Positions 2,849 to 32,784 of a DNA stretch of 64,000 bases are shown piece after piece. The notes under the pieces are model-generated. The model made no database searches. It saw only the letters and a program-made list of their open reading frames with translations, and was not told the DNA's origin. The stretch's first letter is position 1. Every line of letters starts with the position of its first letter. The DNA lies in the NCBI GenBank assembly GCA_016188865.1, contig JACPGX010000001.1:205197-269196 (forward strand), given 5' to 3'. Made by a program: the position numbers and the translations under genes. The DNA comes from Candidatus Nealsonbacteria bacterium. GTDB lineage: Bacteria > Patescibacteriota > Minisyncoccia > Minisyncoccales > MHMH01.

Positions 2849-4159
2849 CTATTCAGTGCGGGATTCAAGTACAACCTTAAAAATCAATTCTTTTCCGCTC
2901 CTAAAAACTTTCAGGACAACTTCATCTCCAGAATTATATTTTTGCATGATTTTTGCCAAAGAATTTTCAGCAGTTATTTTTTCACTATTGAATTCTAAAA
3001 TAATATCTGCCTCTTTAAGGCCTGCTTTTTCTGCGGCAGAATTAGGCAAAATAGCAGCTTCTCCCTTGCCGGTTACAAGCCAAGCGCCGTAAGAAACTGG
3101 CAAGTTATTATCTTGCTGAATTTTTTCTGTGATAATGGTGTATTTTATTCCTAAAAAGGGATAAATAATTTTCCCTGAATATTTAACTTGCTCAATATCT
3201 CTTTTAGCTTTATTGACCGGTATGGCAAAGCCAATGTTTTGAGCTTCAAGGACTGTGGCCGTGTTGATTCCAACGACTTCGCCCATTAAATTCAAAAGGG
3301 GGCCGCCCGAATTGCCTTTGTTGATTGCCGCATCTGTTTGAATAACATCCTCAATGGTTTCCACTAGACCGCCGCCTTCGGCAGTAATTGTTCTGCCCAA
3401 ACCGGAAATTACTCCAACGGAAATGGTATTCCTAAATTCGCCTAAAGCGTTTCCAATGGTAATGACTGTTTGGCCAATCTGCAGTTTGTCAGAATTACCG
3501 AGCTCAACCACTGGAAAATATTTTTGAATCAGCTGGCCCGAATCGTCAATTCGGCTTTTCGTTTCAATTCTTAATACGGCTAAATCCTGTAGAGGATCTC
3601 TAGCTAAAACTTTTGCTGAAAACTTTTTTCCATCATTGGTAAAAACAGTGTAATCCGCTTCCTCGTCTAGAACTACGTGTTTATTAGTTAAAATCATGCC
3701 ATCTTCAGAAACAATGAAGCCGGTACCTCCGCCAATTTCTTTCTTTTCCGTTCCTATTTGGCGCTTCTGAGGAACGCCAAAATTAAAAGGCTCCCCAAAA
3801 ATCTGTTCAAATTCCTGAAAAGGATTAATGTAATACTGCTCAAAAACCGGCAAATCCTTGCTAATAACAATGCTAACTACAGCCGGAGAGGCAGTTTTAA
3901 TCACATTGATAATTTTTTCCTCTTCAGTAGTTTGAGGAATATATTCTTTTTCAATTGCTTTTTCTGGAGATGGGGTGCTAAACTTTGAAAGATAGTCTTT
4001 GGCTTCAAAATAAAAAACGCTGCCGGAAATAATGCCTGCCAAAAAGCCAAAAAATGAAGACGCAAAAATAATGGATGCAAAAATCCAAAAAGTCTTATTT
4101 TTCCAGAACTTGGGGAATTTTATTTTTATATTAGGAGAATCCAAATCGTAAAGCGTCAT
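2849..4159 (-). CDS. htrA: HtrA/DegP-type trypsin-like serine protease with C-terminal PDZ domain
   Basis: TM anchor, TNKHVV, GNSGGPLLN, and a PDZ-like tail. ATGA overlap with the iscU stop. Confidence 0.9.
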   Translation of the reverse strand: MTLYDLDSPNIKIKFPKFWKNKTFWIFASIIFASSFFGFLAGIISGSVFYFEAKDYLSKFSTPSPEKAIEKEYIPQTTEEEKIINVIKTASPAVVSIVISKDLPVFEQYYINPFQEFEQIFGEPFNFGVPQKRQIGTEKKEIGGGTGFIVSEDGMILTNKHVVLDEEADYTVFTNDGKKFSAKVLARDPLQDLAVLRIETKSRIDDSGQLIQKYFPVVELGNSDKLQIGQTVITIGNALGEFRNTISVGVISGLGRTITAEGGGLVETIEDVIQTDAAINKGNSGGPLLNLMGEVVGINTATVLEAQNIGFAIPVNKAKRDIEQVKYSGKIIYPFLGIKYTIITEKIQQDNNLPVSYGAWLVTGKGEAAILPNSAAEKAGLKEADIILEFNSEKITAENSLAKIMQKYNSGDEVVLKVFRSGKELIFKVVLESRTE

Positions 4160-5631
4160 TTTTTAAATTTTTGATTGTAATCGTCAACTGCAGCTTTTAA
4201 AGCTGACTTAGCTAAGTAAGAGCAATGAACTTTAGCCGGCGGAACTTCACCAAGCTCTTTGACGATATCTTTATAGTCGATTTTTAATGCCTCTTCAATT
4301 GTTTTTCCTTTAACCACTTCGCACATTATATCAGAAATGCTTATGGCGTGCCCGCAATTATGTACCGCAAAACCTTTAACTAAATAAGAATTGGGCGTTC
4401 CGTCTACCAACATATTATATACATATCCTGCATATTTGCTTCTAATTATTTTTTTGATGGGCACAAGGAAATAATTTTTCGTGAAATAAACAAAATTATG
4501 ACCTTTTCTTTTCAGCCTAAAGAAAACATCGTAAATCGGCCCAGATGACACCTTGCGACCTTCTATATAATTTCTCGATGGGTCAAATTTTCTTTTTCTA
4601 ATACTGGAAAATATCTTGCATCTCGCCAAAATTTCTTGCATTTGGATGGCCAAATCTTTGGAGGCGGTCGTTATCTCGTATCGCGGATAATCTCCCACTC
4701 TCCGTACCGAAGACGAGCCATCTCCTTTAATATAAGTTTTAATCATTTCCCATTGTTTTTTAGACGGCAAAACTAGTATCTCATCAGCTAATTTCTTTTG
4801 AGTAGCGTAGCTTCCGCAAATTTTCTTAAAAAATTTACACCACTGCCTAGAGCAAATATAAATTTCGATGACATTGCCCCTAATTCTTTCTTTGGGAACC
4901 TTTTTTGTAACATCGATAAGTAATTTCTGGAGCTCTGCAATATTATCTTTTTCATTTTTATTAAGGGAGAAGTTTAATGCTCCACTATTAGCCGTAACGT
5001 ATCCCTCTGCCAGATAATAACCGATTAATTTCATTATTTTTGAAGTAAATTGAGGATTGTCTTTTATTTTTCTATTAGAAACATAAACAAGGTAATCACC
5101 CCTTACTAATTCTCCGGCGAATACAGGGTCGGGTTTTTTAGACAAAAGCTCATCTTTTTTAATTTTGAGCCAATCGCATTTTTTGTTATAGCGTCGAGCA
5201 GATTTAAGCTTATTCCTTTTTATGCAAAACACTGGATGTTCGGAAGTGACAGAAAATTTATTAAATGGTGAAACAAAAGGCAGTAAAGTCAACATCGGAC
5301 CGCTATATTTTCTTTTAAATGTTTTGAGCACTGTCGTTGCTCGACCATTGCTATTTAAAACTGTTTTACCTTTCTTAATTGTAGAAATTGCACCCCAATC
5401 TCCCTCATTAAATAACACTTCTCCTTTAGGCGGTAGACATCCAAAAGTTTCGAACTTTACATCTTCAATAATTTCTTTTCCTCCGACTTTCTTTACTTTT
5501 ATGTACATTTTCATAACGTCTCCGCAGCGCATATTCTGGGTATCGCCAATGCCCGAGGCATCTTTAATTTTACCCATATTTTTAGGATGAAGAAAATGCT
5601 CTATGACTTTTTTGCTATAGTAAGGTTTCAT
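4156..5631 (-). CDS. iscU: IscU/NifU-type Fe-S scaffold interrupted by an intein
   Basis: Exteins: 64 aa ending ..NMRCGDVM..KFETFG, and 66 aa beginning CGHAISISD..KVHCS. Spliced, they give the canonical TFGCG..HCS IscU core. Confidence 0.9.
   Translation of the reverse strand: MKPYYSKKVIEHFLHPKNMGKIKDASGIGDTQNMRCGDVMKMYIKVKKVGGKEIIEDVKFETFGCLPPKGEVLFNEGDWGAISTIKKGKTVLNSNGRATTVLKTFKRKYSGPMLTLLPFVSPFNKFSVTSEHPVFCIKRNKLKSARRYNKKCDWLKIKKDELLSKKPDPVFAGELVRGDYLVYVSNRKIKDNPQFTSKIMKLIGYYLAEGYVTANSGALNFSLNKNEKDNIAELQKLLIDVTKKVPKERIRGNVIEIYICSRQWCKFFKKICGSYATQKKLADEILVLPSKKQWEMIKTYIKGDGSSSVRRVGDYPRYEITTASKDLAIQMQEILARCKIFSSIRKRKFDPSRNYIEGRKVSSGPIYDVFFRLKRKGHNFVYFTKNYFLVPIKKIIRSKYAGYVYNMLVDGTPNSYLVKGFAVHNCGHAISISDIMCEVVKGKTIEEALKIDYKDIVKELGEVPPAKVHCSYLAKSALKAAVDDYNQKFKK
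4357..5439 (-). mobile_element. Full-length intein (361 aa) with LAGLIDADG homing-endonuclease domain
   Basis: Cys1 (CLPPKG..), block B TSEHP, LAGLIDADG motifs LIGYYLAEGYV and YIKGDGSS, terminal VHN followed by +1 Cys. Confidence 0.85.
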
Positions 5632-23079: not shown

Positions 23080-23110
23080 AAAAAGCTGAGGCGTTAACCT
23101 CGGCTTTTTT
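23080..23110. terminator. Bidirectional terminator between pth (+) and the 23120-23353 gene (-)
   Basis: aaaaagctgagg..cctcggctttttt, with A/T runs on both sides. Confidence 0.7.
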
Positions 23111-23119
23111 GTTTTGCCT

Positions 23120-23353
23120 CTAGTCGGTTGTTCCCTCGCTTCCCATGCCTGTTGGTTGCCTTACGGTCTTTTCTTCTATAATATCGCCAATATTGGCAAT
23201 AACGCTTTCTCTCAAATCAGTACTGCCGCATTCCGGACAAGGGCCTTCATGCGATAAGGGCAGTATCATGCCGCACTCGCAGAGTTTTCCTCCAATATGG
23301 GAAACAACTTGGCCATCAGCTCTGATAACTCGGTATTTTTGCTCATTAGCCAT
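23120..23353 (-). CDS. Small zinc-ribbon protein
   Basis: CxC..CPEC pattern, with a strong AAGGAGG RBS. Confidence 0.6.
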   Translation of the reverse strand: MANEQKYRVIRADGQVVSHIGGKLCECGMILPLSHEGPCPECGSTDLRESVIANIGDIIEEKTVRQPTGMGSEGTTD

Positions 23354-23370: not shown

Positions 23371-23796
23371 TTATTTTCTCAGCTTTCTTAAAAGTTCTTG
23401 GGCCATTCCTCGCTGAATGCCGTATATATCAAAGTTCTTATCATAGATAATTTTGCAAGGAAACCACTGGGCATCCAGAATTTCATCTGGGTCTATTTTT
23501 ATCGTTCCCGGAGTAGGATAGCCGATGAAAGCGACTTTTAAATAATCTTTCTGCCTTCTTTCTACCCTTATTCGCGAATTAACTTCCGGAAAAATGCCGA
23601 TTTCATGTAGAACCTCTCTTTCTGCTACAGCAATTTCGTCTTTGTCTTGAGGCTCACCTCTGCCTCCGGACATTCCCCACTTAGACGGCTTTGGAAAAGT
23701 TTCACCGTTCGGCTTTGTGATTAGTTTCTCCTTTTCCAGTACAAAGAGAATTTGATTATCATCAAGCATCAGCACTTTCACATCAATATCTTCCAT
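23371..23796 (-). CDS. NUDIX hydrolase
   Basis: Nudix box GGRGEPQDKDEIAVAEREVLHEIG. Confidence 0.85.
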   Translation of the reverse strand: MEDIDVKVLMLDDNQILFVLEKEKLITKPNGETFPKPSKWGMSGGRGEPQDKDEIAVAEREVLHEIGIFPEVNSRIRVERRQKDYLKVAFIGYPTPGTIKIDPDEILDAQWFPCKIIYDKNFDIYGIQRGMAQELLRKLRK

Positions 23797-23973
23797 TTTC
23801 CGCCTCCCTTAATCTACCCGCGAGACCGCAGTGATTTGAAGGCGCATAAAGCGCCTTGCCGCGAAGAGTCCTGGGATTCTTAATCCCATACCCGGCCTTC
23901 TAGACTTAAAGTATCGTCCAGAATACCACTCGCGAGCAGGTTAAGGAAAGGGAAATTTTGACAAGTTGCTAAC
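23797..23973 (-). promoter_or_regulatory. ~175-nt GC-rich structured 5' leader of the NUDIX operon (candidate riboswitch or regulatory RNA, unclassified)
   Basis: 8-bp closing helix CUCGCGAG/CUCGCGGG encloses three hairpins, including GGGAUU-AAG-AAUCCC and AAGGCGC-UUUAU-GCGCCUU. The RBS AAGGGAGG follows directly. Confidence 0.4.
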
Positions 23974-24009
23974 TGTGTACTATATATCACATATAGATGG
24001 AAAAGTCAA
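23958..24009. promoter_or_regulatory. Face-to-face promoters sharing one palindromic -10 box: TTGACA-17-TATATA-17-AGTCAA
   Basis: Plus strand: -35 at 23958-63 and -10 at 23981-86, driving mfd (ATG 23997). Minus strand: -35 is revcomp of 24004-09 with the same -10, driving the NUDIX leader. Confidence 0.55.
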
Positions 24010-26024
24010 CGGTGCCGGGTGTTAAATCGATTCTAATCGTCAGTATCAACCCCTACTTTTTAGACAGGGAGAATTTTTGGTTTGAAGAAAATATCAAACA
24101 AATACTGGAAGCGCGGAAAAATCAAACCTTCTTTCAAGATAATACCATATATGTAGACGTAGAAAAAAGCCCCGCCTTCGCCAAGGCTTCGGCGGGCAAG
24201 CAGAAAATTAAGCTTTCTGAATTTTTAAGAAAAATTGATGAAATGGGCTATGAAAAAGTTCAAAAGGTCTCCGAGCCCGGAGAATTTTCCCGCCAAGGAG
24301 GAATTATTGATATTTTCCCGTTAAATATAAATTGTGCCGTTAGAATTGAATTTTTCGGCAACTCAATAGAAAACATGGAAAAACTGCCCATTATTATTGA
24401 AAATGAAAAAGAAATCAAAGAAAGAATAAAAAATAAACTGAAAAGGCAGAAAATTTACTCGCAATTGGGAACATTAAAGCCGGGTGATTATTTGGTGCAT
24501 CTAGACCACGGCGTCGGAATTTACAGAGGTCGGACCTCCCAAGGAGGTCCGACCTCAAACGACTCAAACGATTACTACACATTGGAATATGCCCAGAACG
24601 ATAAACTCTATGTTCCGATTGGGCTGGAAAGAAAACTTTCAAGATATGTTGGATTTTCAGAGCCGAAAATATCGCGGCTAAGCTCGCCCGTCTGGATAAA
24701 CACCAAAAGAAAAATTAAAGAAGAAACTGAAAAACTAGCTAAAGAACTTTTGGAAATTTACGCCCAGAGAGAAATTTCAACTCGCCCATATTATATAGAA
24801 GATACGGAAATTGACGCCTTGCTGGCAAGTACTTTTGTTCACGAAGAAACTCCGGATCAAATCCAAGCCATGGAAGAAATTAAAAAAGATTTGGAAGAAA
24901 AAGAAGAGCCAATGGACAGAATTGTTTGCGGCGACGTGGGTTTTGGCAAAACTGAAATTGCCTTAAGGACCATTATTAAAGCGGTCAATTCCGGATATCA
25001 ATCGGCTTTGATTTGCCCAACCACTATTTTGGCCTCGCAGCATTGCCAGACTTTCCAAAAAAGAATTGGTGATCTTCCGATAAAAGTTGAATTATTAAGC
25101 CGTCTTCAATCAAAGAGGGAGCAGAAACAAATAATTCAAAATATCAAAGATGGCAAAACAGATATCGTTATAGGAACCCACCGCCTTTTATCAAATGACG
25201 TTAACTTTAAAAACTTAGGATTGCTGGTTATTGACGATGAACAAAGATTCGGAGTCAGGCAGAAAGAAAAATTAAAAAAAATAAGGACTTCCCTAGATGT
25301 TTTATCGCTTTCAGCCACGCCAATTCCCAGAACCCTCTACTTGGCCATGTCTTCTTTAAAAGATATCAGCATAATTCAAACGCCGCCTGCTCAACGGCTT
25401 CCGATTAAAACTTTGGTAAAACCATGGTCAAAAGAAATCATTAAAAAGGCAATTCAGGAAGAAATTTCGCGCAACGGCCAAGTTTATTACCTGCACAATC
25501 GCGTAGAAACTATTGAAACAGCAAAAAAATTGCTGGAAGATTTACTGCCGAAAGTAAAATTTGGAATTATCCACGGCAAAATGGAAGAAAAAAATTTAAT
25601 AAAGATAATGGATGATTTTACCAATAAAAAAATTGGCGTTTTAATCGCTACCACCATTATTGAAAACGGCCTGGACCTGCCCAATGTCAACACTTTAATT
25701 GCGGCCAATGCCGCCAAACTCGGACTTTCCCAGGCATATCAAATAAGAGGCAGAATCGGCAGGTCGCACATTCAGGCATTCGCTTATTTCTTGCATGGCG
25801 GCAATCTTTCTGAGCTAGCAAAGGAAAGATTAAGAGCTTTAAAAGAGGCGGAAGAGCTTGGTTCGGGATACCGAATTGCCATGAAAGATTTGGAACTTCG
25901 GGGCGCCGGCAACATTCTAGGAAAAGAGCAATCAGGCAACATCAACCATGTGGGACTGAATCTATATTGTCAAATGTTATCCGATGCGATTGAAAAACTG
26001 AAGGCTTACGATTATAATAAATAA
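23997..26024 (+). CDS. mfd: Transcription-repair coupling factor Mfd (short form, 675 aa)
   Basis: RNAP-interaction module PGDYLVHLDHGVGIY, helicase motifs DVGFGKTE and DDEQRFG, and a TRG-like region. Confidence 0.9.
   Translation: MEKSTVPGVKSILIVSINPYFLDRENFWFEENIKQILEARKNQTFFQDNTIYVDVEKSPAFAKASAGKQKIKLSEFLRKIDEMGYEKVQKVSEPGEFSRQGGIIDIFPLNINCAVRIEFFGNSIENMEKLPIIIENEKEIKERIKNKLKRQKIYSQLGTLKPGDYLVHLDHGVGIYRGRTSQGGPTSNDSNDYYTLEYAQNDKLYVPIGLERKLSRYVGFSEPKISRLSSPVWINTKRKIKEETEKLAKELLEIYAQREISTRPYYIEDTEIDALLASTFVHEETPDQIQAMEEIKKDLEEKEEPMDRIVCGDVGFGKTEIALRTIIKAVNSGYQSALICPTTILASQHCQTFQKRIGDLPIKVELLSRLQSKREQKQIIQNIKDGKTDIVIGTHRLLSNDVNFKNLGLLVIDDEQRFGVRQKEKLKKIRTSLDVLSLSATPIPRTLYLAMSSLKDISIIQTPPAQRLPIKTLVKPWSKEIIKKAIQEEISRNGQVYYLHNRVETIETAKKLLEDLLPKVKFGIIHGKMEEKNLIKIMDDFTNKKIGVLIATTIIENGLDLPNVNTLIAANAAKLGLSQAYQIRGRIGRSHIQAFAYFLHGGNLSELAKERLRALKEAEELGSGYRIAMKDLELRGAGNILGKEQSGNINHVGLNLYCQMLSDAIEKLKAYDYNK
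24526..24556. repeat. PE hairpin element, short-loop copy in-frame in mfd (gaggtcggacctcc-caa-ggaggtccgacctc)
   Basis: 14-bp perfect stem translated RGRTSQGGPTS. The arm sequence matches the copies at 9026 and 34384. Confidence 0.9.
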
Positions 26025-26069: not shown

Positions 26070-26783
26070 ATGAAGAGAGTAATATTCGCCAAAGATCAAA
26101 TCTATCATGTTTATAATCGCGGTGTAGAAAAACGAAATATCTTTTTAGATGATAAAGATTATTTTCGGTTTATTCACAATCTCTTTGAATTTAACGATGA
26201 AAAACCAGCAGAAAATATTTATTATAAACAACCAATGCTTCAGTCGCAGAAAATACAATCTTACGAGGCTTCGCCTCGTAAGATTAATATGCCTAGAAAA
26301 TTACTAGTAGAAATTATGGCATTTTGTCTGATGCCCAATCACTATCATTTATTGCTAAGACAAAAACAAGATAGGGGGATCACCAGATTTATGCAAAAAT
26401 TAGGTACTGGATATTCTATGTATTTTAATCAAAAGCACGAAAGAACCGGAATTTTATTCCAGGGACCGTTCAAGGCCATTTTAGTCGATAGGGAAACTTA
26501 TTTTTATTATTTACCATATTACATTCACTTTAATCCCCTAGATTTGATTGAGCCAGAATGGAGAAATGGCAAAATTAATAATTACAAAGAAGCCTTAAAT
26601 TTTCTGGAAAATTATCGCTGGTCAAGCCATCTTGATTATATTGGCAAGAAAAATTTTCCCTCGGTGACCCAACGGGAATTTCTTTTAGAATACCATCAAA
26701 ATGGAAACCGATATAAACAATCTATTGAAAATTGGCTAAAAGAAATACAACTAGAAAAAATAAAAGATATAATGCTGGAATAA
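26070..26783 (+). CDS. REP-associated tyrosine transposase-like protein (IS200/Y1 HUH family), paralog 2
   Basis: DQIYHVYNRG, FCLMPNHYHLLL, YYIHFNP. Confidence 0.85.
   Translation: MKRVIFAKDQIYHVYNRGVEKRNIFLDDKDYFRFIHNLFEFNDEKPAENIYYKQPMLQSQKIQSYEASPRKINMPRKLLVEIMAFCLMPNHYHLLLRQKQDRGITRFMQKLGTGYSMYFNQKHERTGILFQGPFKAILVDRETYFYYLPYYIHFNPLDLIEPEWRNGKINNYKEALNFLENYRWSSHLDYIGKKNFPSVTQREFLLEYHQNGNRYKQSIENWLKEIQLEKIKDIMLE
26257..26285. repeat. REP-2 hairpin, internal in-frame copy (loop inverted: ttc)
   Basis: aatcttacgaggc-ttc-gcctcgtaagatt, translated QSYEASPRKI. Confidence 0.9.
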
Positions 26784-32701: not shown

Positions 32702-32784
32702 GGGCGAGTGGTGGAATGGCAGACACGATGGATTCAAAATCCATTGAGCGCAAGCTCATGAGAGTTCGACTCTCTCCTCGCCCA
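32702..32784 (+). tRNA. tRNA-Leu (anticodon CAA), class II, no encoded CCA
   Basis: Acceptor GGGCGAG/CUCGCCC plus discriminator A. Anticodon arm AUGGA-UUCAAAA-UCCAU. Long variable arm GAGC-GCAA-GCUC. T arm GAGAG-UUCGACU-CUCUC. Confidence 0.92.

Follow-up and report, generated by a model that had tools for sequence, protein, structure and literature searches.

A Conserved, Covarying Structured RNA Precedes a NUDIX Hydrolase Gene in One Clade of Candidatus Nealsonbacteria

Introduction

Aptamers that are organized around a four-way junction, such as those of the SAM-I, cobalamin, NiCo/czcD and yybP-ykoY classes, combine a short P1 with many conserved nucleotides in the junction and the loops. 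The ykkC fold is made up of two coaxial stacks and contains no perfect four-way junction, and RNase III sites of the rnc and pnp type are simple long hairpins. Very stable terminal structures are also known to shield bacterial mRNAs against 5'-end-dependent decay. Among the described leaders, the ykkC riboswitch of subtype 2c controls NUDIX hydrolase genes upon the presence of nucleoside diphosphates, and an association with NUDIX/HAD hydrolases has likewise been described (PMC7266159).

Here we describe a segment in front of a NUDIX hydrolase gene of the ultra-small CPR bacterium Candidatus Nealsonbacteria which is confirmed to be a conserved, covarying structured RNA on the sense strand of that gene. 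Gene regulation in CPR bacteria is largely unexplored, and this RNA is under stronger purifying selection than its enzyme gene. Our literature search found no description of a NUDIX-associated structured RNA motif in CPR bacteria, and the candidates of Weinberg et al. (2017) include no mention of NUDIX/MutT or Parcubacteria motifs (PMC5737381).

Results

Genomic setting and the NUDIX gene

The window, by which we mean the whole 64-kb stretch of DNA that was analyzed, has the local gene order hisS, lepB, pth (plus strand), zinc-ribbon gene (minus), NUDIX gene (minus), RNA motif, mfd (plus), IS200-like Y1 transposase gene and topA. The NUDIX gene occupies positions 23371-23796 of the minus strand (start ATG at 23796-23794, 141 aa) and is invariably the gene downstream of the leader RNA. 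Its product matches a protein from a Candidatus Nealsonbacteria MAG (CPR/Patescibacteria) with 100% identity. Only a generic NUDIX domain is recognized in the protein (Pfam PF00293, E = 6.9e-09), and its AF2 model (pLDDT 95.7) shows a generic NUDIX fold, for which Foldseek returned Ap4A hydrolase, NudC, CTP pyrophosphohydrolase, MutT2, BdRppH, NUDT12 and Dcp2 with scores that are all alike. The closest sequence match in the PDB is NUDT18 (E = 7e-06), and a search for an NCBIfam equivalog found none. As the Foldseek matches are all generic too, sequence and fold are uninformative as to the substrate. Several of the Foldseek relatives act on RNA 5' ends, which keeps alive, without lending it specific support, the idea of an RNA substrate.

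Some features of the gene deserve mention in their own right. The NUDIX box (residues ~44-68) reads REVLHEIG in the subclade of the window, where the canonical form is REVxEExG; a histidine thus replaces the first glutamate of the catalytic pair in this subclade, whereas the EE pair is kept in other orthologues. Gene callers at times extend the NUDIX reading frame upstream through the RNA, as in P0012 (168 aa) and in the reading frames of L013, L007 and L023, and N-terminal extensions such as ..GKALYASSNYYGLMGRLREEK are almost certainly artifacts, that is, translated structured RNA.

The second operon gene in the window encodes a 77-aa zinc-ribbon protein (23120-23353, minus strand). The first-pass annotation had described a leader in front of a NUDIX/zinc-ribbon operon; both genes are indeed present here, but the zinc-ribbon gene occurs in only three of the 13 loci checked (the window, L006 and L009) and is not conserved with the RNA, the NUDIX gene being followed elsewhere by a gene for a 106-aa protein or by nothing. 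A bidirectional terminator hairpin (AAAAAGCTGAGGCGTTAACCTCGGCTTTTT, 23080-23109, both strands), which the zinc-ribbon gene has in common with the convergent pth, closes the operon. The Y1 transposase gene (PF01797, 237 aa) lies at 26070-26783 on the plus strand between mfd and topA, and in L003 (~3823-4550, minus strand) a protein with an N-terminal sequence like that of the Y1 transposase is encoded between the NUDIX operon and pth. These transposases of the window and L003 may be REP-associated (RAYT-like) and linked to GC-rich palindromes.

Relatives of the RNA and their gene context

Relatives were sought by a search with the NUDIX protein, which gave eight close orthologues, and then by a profile search, which gave about 30 clusters with a sharp drop in score after them; the corresponding contigs were retrieved. 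Two further DNA-pattern scans were built from the RNA alone. Altogether, 17 distinct copies of the RNA were obtained from Candidatus Nealsonbacteria-type genomes and metagenomes, namely the one in the window and those in loci L001, L002, L003, L006, L007, L008, L009, L013, L018, L023, L024, L026, L028, L030, L034 and L036. Five of them (L013, L018, L023, L024 and L026) were found by the RNA pattern with no reference to the protein. A NUDIX orthologue lies directly 3' of the RNA and on the same strand in all 17 copies, even though the neighbors on the 5' side of the RNA and beyond the NUDIX gene are not the same throughout, and there is one copy per locus and one in the 64-kb window. Pattern matches in L010, L012, L014-L017, L019, L020, L022 and L025 were discarded as chance matches, the motif being missing there. 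Nothing was found in a first scan of genome contigs with the NUDIX protein, nor did the RNA pattern find anything in viral contigs, and a phage BLAST gave no match. One NUDIX orthologue in a different context (L031-L033) has no RNA motif and is preceded by a 60-nt leader with its own promoter. The distribution is narrow, comprising one Nealsonbacteria-type clade with about 30 NUDIX clusters, and synteny inside so narrow a clade is weak evidence for a functional link.

The gene upstream of the RNA is a divergent mfd in most loci, and other small genes take this place in L013 and L023. In L002 (1003-1632), L018, L024 and L026 a co-directional gene of about 200 codons, the product of which has a hydrophobic, TM-like tail, lies between the mfd-side promoter and the RNA; the product has a signal-peptide-like N-terminus in L002, L024 and L026, and L007 retains the 3' end of a similar gene. 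The loci with a co-directional upstream gene, and likewise L028, carry a perfect 10-13-bp hairpin that has no U-run and adjoins P1 on its 5' side; L006, which is truncated at its 5' end, probably has this hairpin as well. In loci with the hairpin or the co-directional gene, the RNA motif is probably intercistronic. An upstream reading frame within the P0 hairpin was considered and dismissed, since neither its frame nor its length is consistent among the copies and the start codon in L024 is followed at once by a stop (AUG-UGA).

Fold of the leader RNA

A multi-stem junction had been proposed for the minus strand of this segment from the sequence, and it is present where it was placed: the minimum free energy of 23790-23975 (minus strand) is -80.5 kcal/mol, as compared with -52.4 ± 4.4 kcal/mol in 200 dinucleotide shuffles (z = -6.43). 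The segment had also been called GC-rich, and its GC content of 0.54 over 23800-23919 does exceed the ~0.35-0.45 of its surroundings, but the enrichment is modest. In the window the motif comprises 147 nt (23803-23949, minus strand) with four helices that meet in one four-way junction, preceded by a 5' leader (23950-23974, minus strand).

The closing helix P1 has 19 bp and pairs 23948-23929 with 23824-23805. Its 5' strand (23929-23948, minus strand) reads UUCCUUAA-C-CUGCUCGCGAG and its 3' strand (23805-23824, minus strand) CUCGCGGGUAG-A-UUAAGGGA, the single C·A mismatch being formed by the invariant C at 23940 and the invariant A at 23813. The 8-bp closing helix that was noted initially (CUCGCGAG/CUCGCGGG) exists, but it is only the inner part of this P1. 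In the window, a pyrimidine run lengthens P1 to about 27 bp by pairing 23955-23949 with 23804-23798; the run includes UUUCCC (23955-23950) of the 5' leader, which extends P1 over the Shine-Dalgarno sequence. The free energy of P1 amounts to -26 to -30 kcal/mol, and to -38 kcal/mol with the extension of the window.

P2 (23894-23927, minus strand) consists of a GGU/GCC base and an 8-bp extension closed by the loop GAUACUUUAA; it is paired in the window as GGU-A-UUCUGGAC, loop GAUACUUUAA, GUCUAGAA-G-GCC (23927-23894), and four of its pairs have changed on both sides. This covariation favors the longer P2 in place of the GUAU..AUAC hairpin that had been drawn earlier. P3 (23866-23893, minus strand) has a GGGU/ACUC base, an A/GG internal loop, a 7-bp tip and an AAG loop, with changes on both sides in nine of 11 pairs, and P4 (23826-23864, minus strand) has a UCGCGG/CUGCGG stem, an asymmetric internal loop (C opposite CAAAUCA) and a tip of AAGGCGC-UUUAU-GCGCCUU, with six pairs changed on both sides. 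The other two hairpins of the first-pass annotation correspond to the tips of these arms: GGGAUU-AAG-AAUCCC to that of P3 (23893-23866) and AAGGCGC-UUUAU-GCGCCUU to that of P4 (23864-23826). A kissing interaction between the P2 and P3 loops (CUU with AAG) is possible in the long-P2 copies; it shows no covariation and is missing from the minimal copies. As a separate observation, P1b (23939-23929 with 23824-23814) and P4a (23864-23859 with 23831-23826) are near-identical (CCGUG/CRCGG-like), so that strand-swapped alternative pairings are possible on paper.

Conservation, covariation and strand

All 13 copies that were collected first fold singly into the same P1-P4 junction. A covariance model (R1) built from seven long-P2 copies gave a single match in each true locus, scoring 42-172 bits; the chance loci and the remainder of the 64-kb window yielded no match. 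The comparative alignment of regions upstream of NUDIX orthologues, which had been proposed as a check, revealed covariation: in a 16-sequence alignment to the model (A8), 96.4% of the 799 cells are standard pairs, and 21 of 54 pairs show compensatory changes on both sides, as compared with 9.4 ± 1.9 in shuffles, none of 500 reaching this value. Sliding the partners by 1-3 columns lowered the pairing to 37-50%. This alignment was fitted to the model, which favors structure; an independent MAFFT/RNAalifold run recovered P1 and P4 with compensatory changes.

The alignment contains about 109 G·U cells and two G·U pairs that hardly vary (15 of 16 copies each; one lies in P4 at columns 188-219), which together show that the RNA is read from the NUDIX sense strand. 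A structure on the mfd (plus) strand was accordingly rejected: there G·U would turn into C·A, the antisense strand scores only 13-29 bits with the model, and it folds at -51.1 kcal/mol as compared with -70.8 kcal/mol for the sense strand. The same G·U pairs, taken with the covariation, exclude an inverted repeat or a MITE at the DNA level; there is, besides, only one copy per locus, G·U and C·A positions in the arms are near-invariant, and there is covariation in the internal helices. In 77 of 78 pairwise comparisons, conservation is higher in the RNA core than in the NUDIX coding sequence (0.81 vs. 0.68); it rises to 0.91 in the P1 strands.

Across the family, which ranges from about 115 to 170 nt, P1 has the near-invariant consensus CCCUUAA-C-CUGCCCGUGAG paired with CUCRYGGGUAG-A-UUAAGGG and an invariant C·A mismatch. 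Its 19 pairs are 98% paired in the 16-sequence alignment, and eight of them never vary. The 3' strand contains GGGUAGAUUAAG in 16 of 17 copies and GGGCAGAUUAGG in L028, where compensatory changes occur even within P1 and the C·A mismatch is kept. The junction contains a U·U, which is replaced by C-G in L008; apart from this it is almost fully paired, with a J3/4 of 1-3 nt and few conserved unpaired bases. The arms are more variable in form. P2 has a GGY/RCC base that bears either the 8-bp extension with the conserved loop GAUACUUUAA or only a 5-6-nt loop (a 3-bp hairpin); in P3, a base of 4 bp is followed by an A/GK internal loop and by a tip that may be short or very much longer; P4 consists of YCGYGG/CURCGG, an asymmetric loop (C vs. 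(CA)AAUYA) and a tip rich in GC. L024 lacks the P4 internal loop, and L028 has a degenerate P4 tip (P4b). The minimal copies at 9-128 of L006 and 1055-1174 of L036 (~115 nt) retain the entire junction.

Promoter and transcription

A promoter far upstream on the minus strand had been suggested for the NUDIX gene, and it proved to be conserved. The -35 box TTGACT (24004-24009, minus strand) lies on the plus strand within mfd codons 3-5, as the reverse complement of ATGGAAAAGTCAA, and is separated by a 17-nt spacer from the extended -10 box TGaTATATA (23981-23989, minus strand); by this arrangement transcription would start near 23974. Alignment of the upstream regions gives ATTGACTTTTCCAT-N5-TATGRTATAYAMT, corresponding to TTGACT, 17 nt and TGnTATATA, a promoter that ends ~7 nt before the ~25-nt leader. 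The -35 region is conserved as ATTGACTTTTCCAT in eight loci, including L013 and L023; since mfd is not adjacent in these two, the element persists as a promoter in its own right. A promoter/terminator scan missed the -10 box because its hexamer ends in A. The stretch from the promoter to the ATG (23797-23980) is free of terminator-like sites, and there is no U-run 3' of P1 in any copy, which dismisses an intrinsic terminator or attenuator. The proposal that the whole segment is 5' UTR is thus borne out in the form of a predicted leader, which runs from the conserved promoter to a NUDIX orthogroup that is downstream in all 17 copies.

The promoters of the NUDIX leader and of mfd apparently stand face to face and overlap (window 23957-24009). 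On the minus strand TTGACT (24009-24004) and TATATA (23986-23981) are 17 nt apart; on the plus strand TTGACA (23957-23962) is followed after 18 nt by the same palindromic TATATA. The mfd transcript would start only ~3-7 nt ahead of the ATG at 23997 and would hence be nearly leaderless. The conserved leader sequence GCAACUUGUCAAAA was considered as a part of the RNA, but is better read as this mfd -35 box TTGACA (plus strand), as it is degenerate in L013, where mfd is gone. An internal promoter from TAGATT in the 3' strand of P1 was likewise rejected, as it has no conserved -35 box and would leave the gene of the window without a Shine-Dalgarno sequence.

Placement of the Shine-Dalgarno sequence

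The Shine-Dalgarno sequence AAGGGAGG of the NUDIX gene (23803-23810, minus strand) is part of P1 and of the P1 extension: the six leading bases (AAGGGA) belong to the 3' strand of P1 and the last two pair in the extension. It had initially been placed immediately 3' of the closing helix; it lies inside the helix instead, and the mean probability of being unpaired is 0.14 for positions -17 to -1 in the window. Six of the 17 copies (window, L003, L013, L023, L026 and L036) have the Shine-Dalgarno sequence within P1 or next to it. In four of these, which carry a matching U/C-rich 5' extension, the mean probability that it is unpaired is 0.14-0.18 (window, L013 and L023) or 0.35 (L003). L036 shows the layout of these four in its sequence, and L026 has a Shine-Dalgarno sequence that abuts P1 yet is mostly open (0.72).

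The remaining 11 copies have a separate AAGGAG downstream, and their start codon lies 20-135 nt past P1. In the nine of these that were folded, the mean probability of being unpaired is 0.42-0.84 over the 17 nt before the start codon. GC-rich palindromes are inserted between the RNA and the Shine-Dalgarno sequence in L018 and L024. Because the Shine-Dalgarno sequence is separate in 11 of 17 copies and such palindromes are tolerated, its occlusion cannot be the mechanism of the whole family, and the design with a ribosome-binding site at the closing helix, as first conceived, is no family feature.

A GC-rich palindrome (GCCCGCCGAAGCCTTGGCGAAGGCGGGGC) also occurs in the window at 24166-24200, in frame within the mfd reading frame, where it encodes ..SPAFAKASAGKQ.. 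and scores as terminator-like on the minus strand. The similar palindromes between the RNA and the Shine-Dalgarno sequence (CCCGCCTTCG..) are found at 3291-3325 of L018 and 1285-1325 of L024. CCCGCCTTCG was dismissed as a repeat family in the window, in which this 10-mer does not recur above chance.

Search for known RNA families

The Rfam scan that had been proposed for the leader was run, and no Rfam 15 family matches it. At the gathering threshold the whole window gave nothing at the motif and only a tRNA at 32702-32784; at E <= 10 the region 23700-24100 gave only a spurious 23-nt osmY match, and seven related loci gave nothing at the motif. These scans of window, region and related loci, together with a null result from ARAGORN, rule out a known RNA family. 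A tRNA or tRNA-like element is dismissed by the same program (0 genes in 23600-24200), by the 19-bp P1 and by the lack of a T-loop consensus. Our searches brought up no comparable structured RNA from CPR bacteria, and Rfam contains no relative.

Discussion

This motif is a previously uncatalogued, clade-restricted structured RNA, and we consider that there is an even chance that it serves as the cis-acting leader of the NUDIX operon. The analysis shows the fold with its conservation and covariation, the strand, the promoter, the constant linkage to the NUDIX gene and, for the window, a predicted occlusion of the Shine-Dalgarno sequence; that the RNA acts as a regulator at all is inferred, and so are the direction of regulation and the effector. 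A conserved sigma-70-type promoter would transcribe the RNA as the 5' leader of the NUDIX mRNA, and in some relatives the RNA would form an intercistronic leader; in either position it would act in cis on NUDIX expression. In the window, the long P1 and the pyrimidine extension would bury the Shine-Dalgarno sequence and the folded leader would hold translation off, so that expression would need either an effector that recognizes the junction module or a cut in P1. As candidate effectors we consider proteins, among them the NUDIX enzyme, or an RNase that cuts double strands; a small molecule is the less likely candidate. The stability of P1, which is far past the usual range for tipping by a ligand, and the paired junction led us to commit to a cis-acting leader; the invariant long helix, the almost fully paired junction and the variable arms point more to macromolecule recognition or processing than to a small-molecule pocket.

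Riboswitch-like architecture had been read into this leader from the outset, and a conserved, covarying RNA in front of a NUDIX gene does agree with that part of the proposal. Taken further, the leader would be a classical metabolite riboswitch, in which the junction is the aptamer for a nucleotide-derived ligand (NDP/NTP, NAD or ADP-ribose, Ap4A, an oxidized purine nucleotide or (p)ppGpp) and binding sets the closure of P1 over the Shine-Dalgarno sequence. Ligand sensing by the RNA is possible, and the complex fold with its covariation, the strict placement 5' of one enzyme family (17 of 17 copies, a single NUDIX orthogroup) and the six copies with the Shine-Dalgarno sequence inside or against P1 all fit it; the control of NUDIX genes by ykkC subtype 2c in response to nucleoside diphosphates offers a precedent (PMC7266159). 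We nonetheless regard a riboswitch as unlikely. Neither a conserved alternative structure nor a terminator or other conserved expression platform was found, 11 of 17 copies being devoid of a platform, and a 19-bp P1 of -26 to -30 kcal/mol (-38 kcal/mol when extended, as here) appears too stable to depend on a ligand. The sequence of P1 is near-invariant, while variation is the rule in switch helices; only a few of the unpaired nucleotides are conserved; L024 lacks the P4 internal loop, and L028 has a degenerate P4b; and the NUDIX substrate could not be narrowed. 

A long P1 could alternatively be a processing stem, cut by RNase III in the manner of rRNA precursor stems. The three-hairpin RNA thereby released would work in trans or as an RNP, and the NUDIX mRNA would be left with a free Shine-Dalgarno sequence. 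An invariant, near-perfect helix of 19-27 bp formed from both ends of the motif is what such an excised, stable ncRNA would have. Its occurrence both at the transcript 5' end and between cistrons, there with the 10-13-bp hairpin abutting P1, the free spacing to the Shine-Dalgarno sequence and an RNA more conserved than the neighboring protein gene are in line with it too. Yet there is neither a terminator nor an independent 3' end signal, the single copy per locus always sits beside NUDIX, no partner protein is known and the processing itself is purely conjectural, for which reasons excision seems to us an improbable account. Still less probable, and by a wide measure doubtful, is a passive mRNA element that senses nothing, be it a 5' stabilizer or insulator or a leftover inverted-repeat element. 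Stable terminal structures are indeed known to protect bacterial mRNAs, and a perfect hairpin stands just 5' of the motif in the co-directional loci; a stabilizer, however, needs a hairpin only, whereas compensatory change has maintained the three internal helices of this motif, minimal copies retain the entire junction and there is one copy in 64 kb.

The boldest reading of the motif is that it represents a sensor class, either riboswitch or ribonucleoprotein, which would be the first one specific to CPR/Patescibacteria, with a junction that binds a nucleotide-derived metabolite or the NUDIX enzyme; for the latter, the RNA might for example be the substrate or a partner when 5' ends or caps are hydrolyzed. 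We deem this unlikely. In that case, nucleotide scavenging or RNA 5'-end chemistry would be coupled to expression in organisms without de novo nucleotide synthesis. If a ligand or protein is sensed, the RNA would identify what the orphan NUDIX enzyme acts on, and it would offer a native regulatory part for organisms now without genetic tools, a need that has been noted (PMC11665869). If the RNA is a mere processing or stability module, it would be a tidy but local curiosity, and the narrow distribution limits its general impact in any event.

Comparison with known systems

The leader displays what is generically seen in riboswitches, namely a covarying, conserved structured domain at a consistent sense-strand position 5' of related genes. 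Its nearest functional analogue is ykkC subtype 2c, which is unrelated in fold. Both are structured 5' leaders before NUDIX genes for which a tuning of a nucleotide-cleaving enzyme is proposed (PMC7266159), but they match in neither sequence nor structure, the leader gives no ykkC-clan match at E <= 10, and ykkC RNAs have clear expression platforms, which the leader does not. With the SAM-I, cobalamin, NiCo/czcD and yybP-ykoY aptamers it shares a P1 that closes a four-helix junction and peripheral helices that vary in length. None of their Rfam models scores at E <= 10, and the conservation of the leader resides in the 19-bp P1, with a junction that is almost fully paired.

RNase III-processed leaders (rnc, pnp) and rRNA stems resemble the motif in having a long, near-perfect helix formed from distant 5' and 3' segments. 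RNase III asks for about two turns (at least 20 bp) of near-continuous helix, and P1 offers 19 bp plus the C·A in all copies and about 27 bp here. A cut at such sites could alter the fate of the mRNA or free the Shine-Dalgarno sequence, and the putative cut in the leader is drawn by analogy; unlike rnc- and pnp-type sites, P1 encloses a covarying three-arm junction. Finally, the 224 candidates of Weinberg et al. (2017) include orphan motifs that are likewise intergenic, covarying and tied to one gene; the leader motif is not among them and is confined to a CPR clade. With its one CPR clade, it constitutes a true new family of structured RNAs, although of the well-known type of orphan leaders that are associated with a gene.
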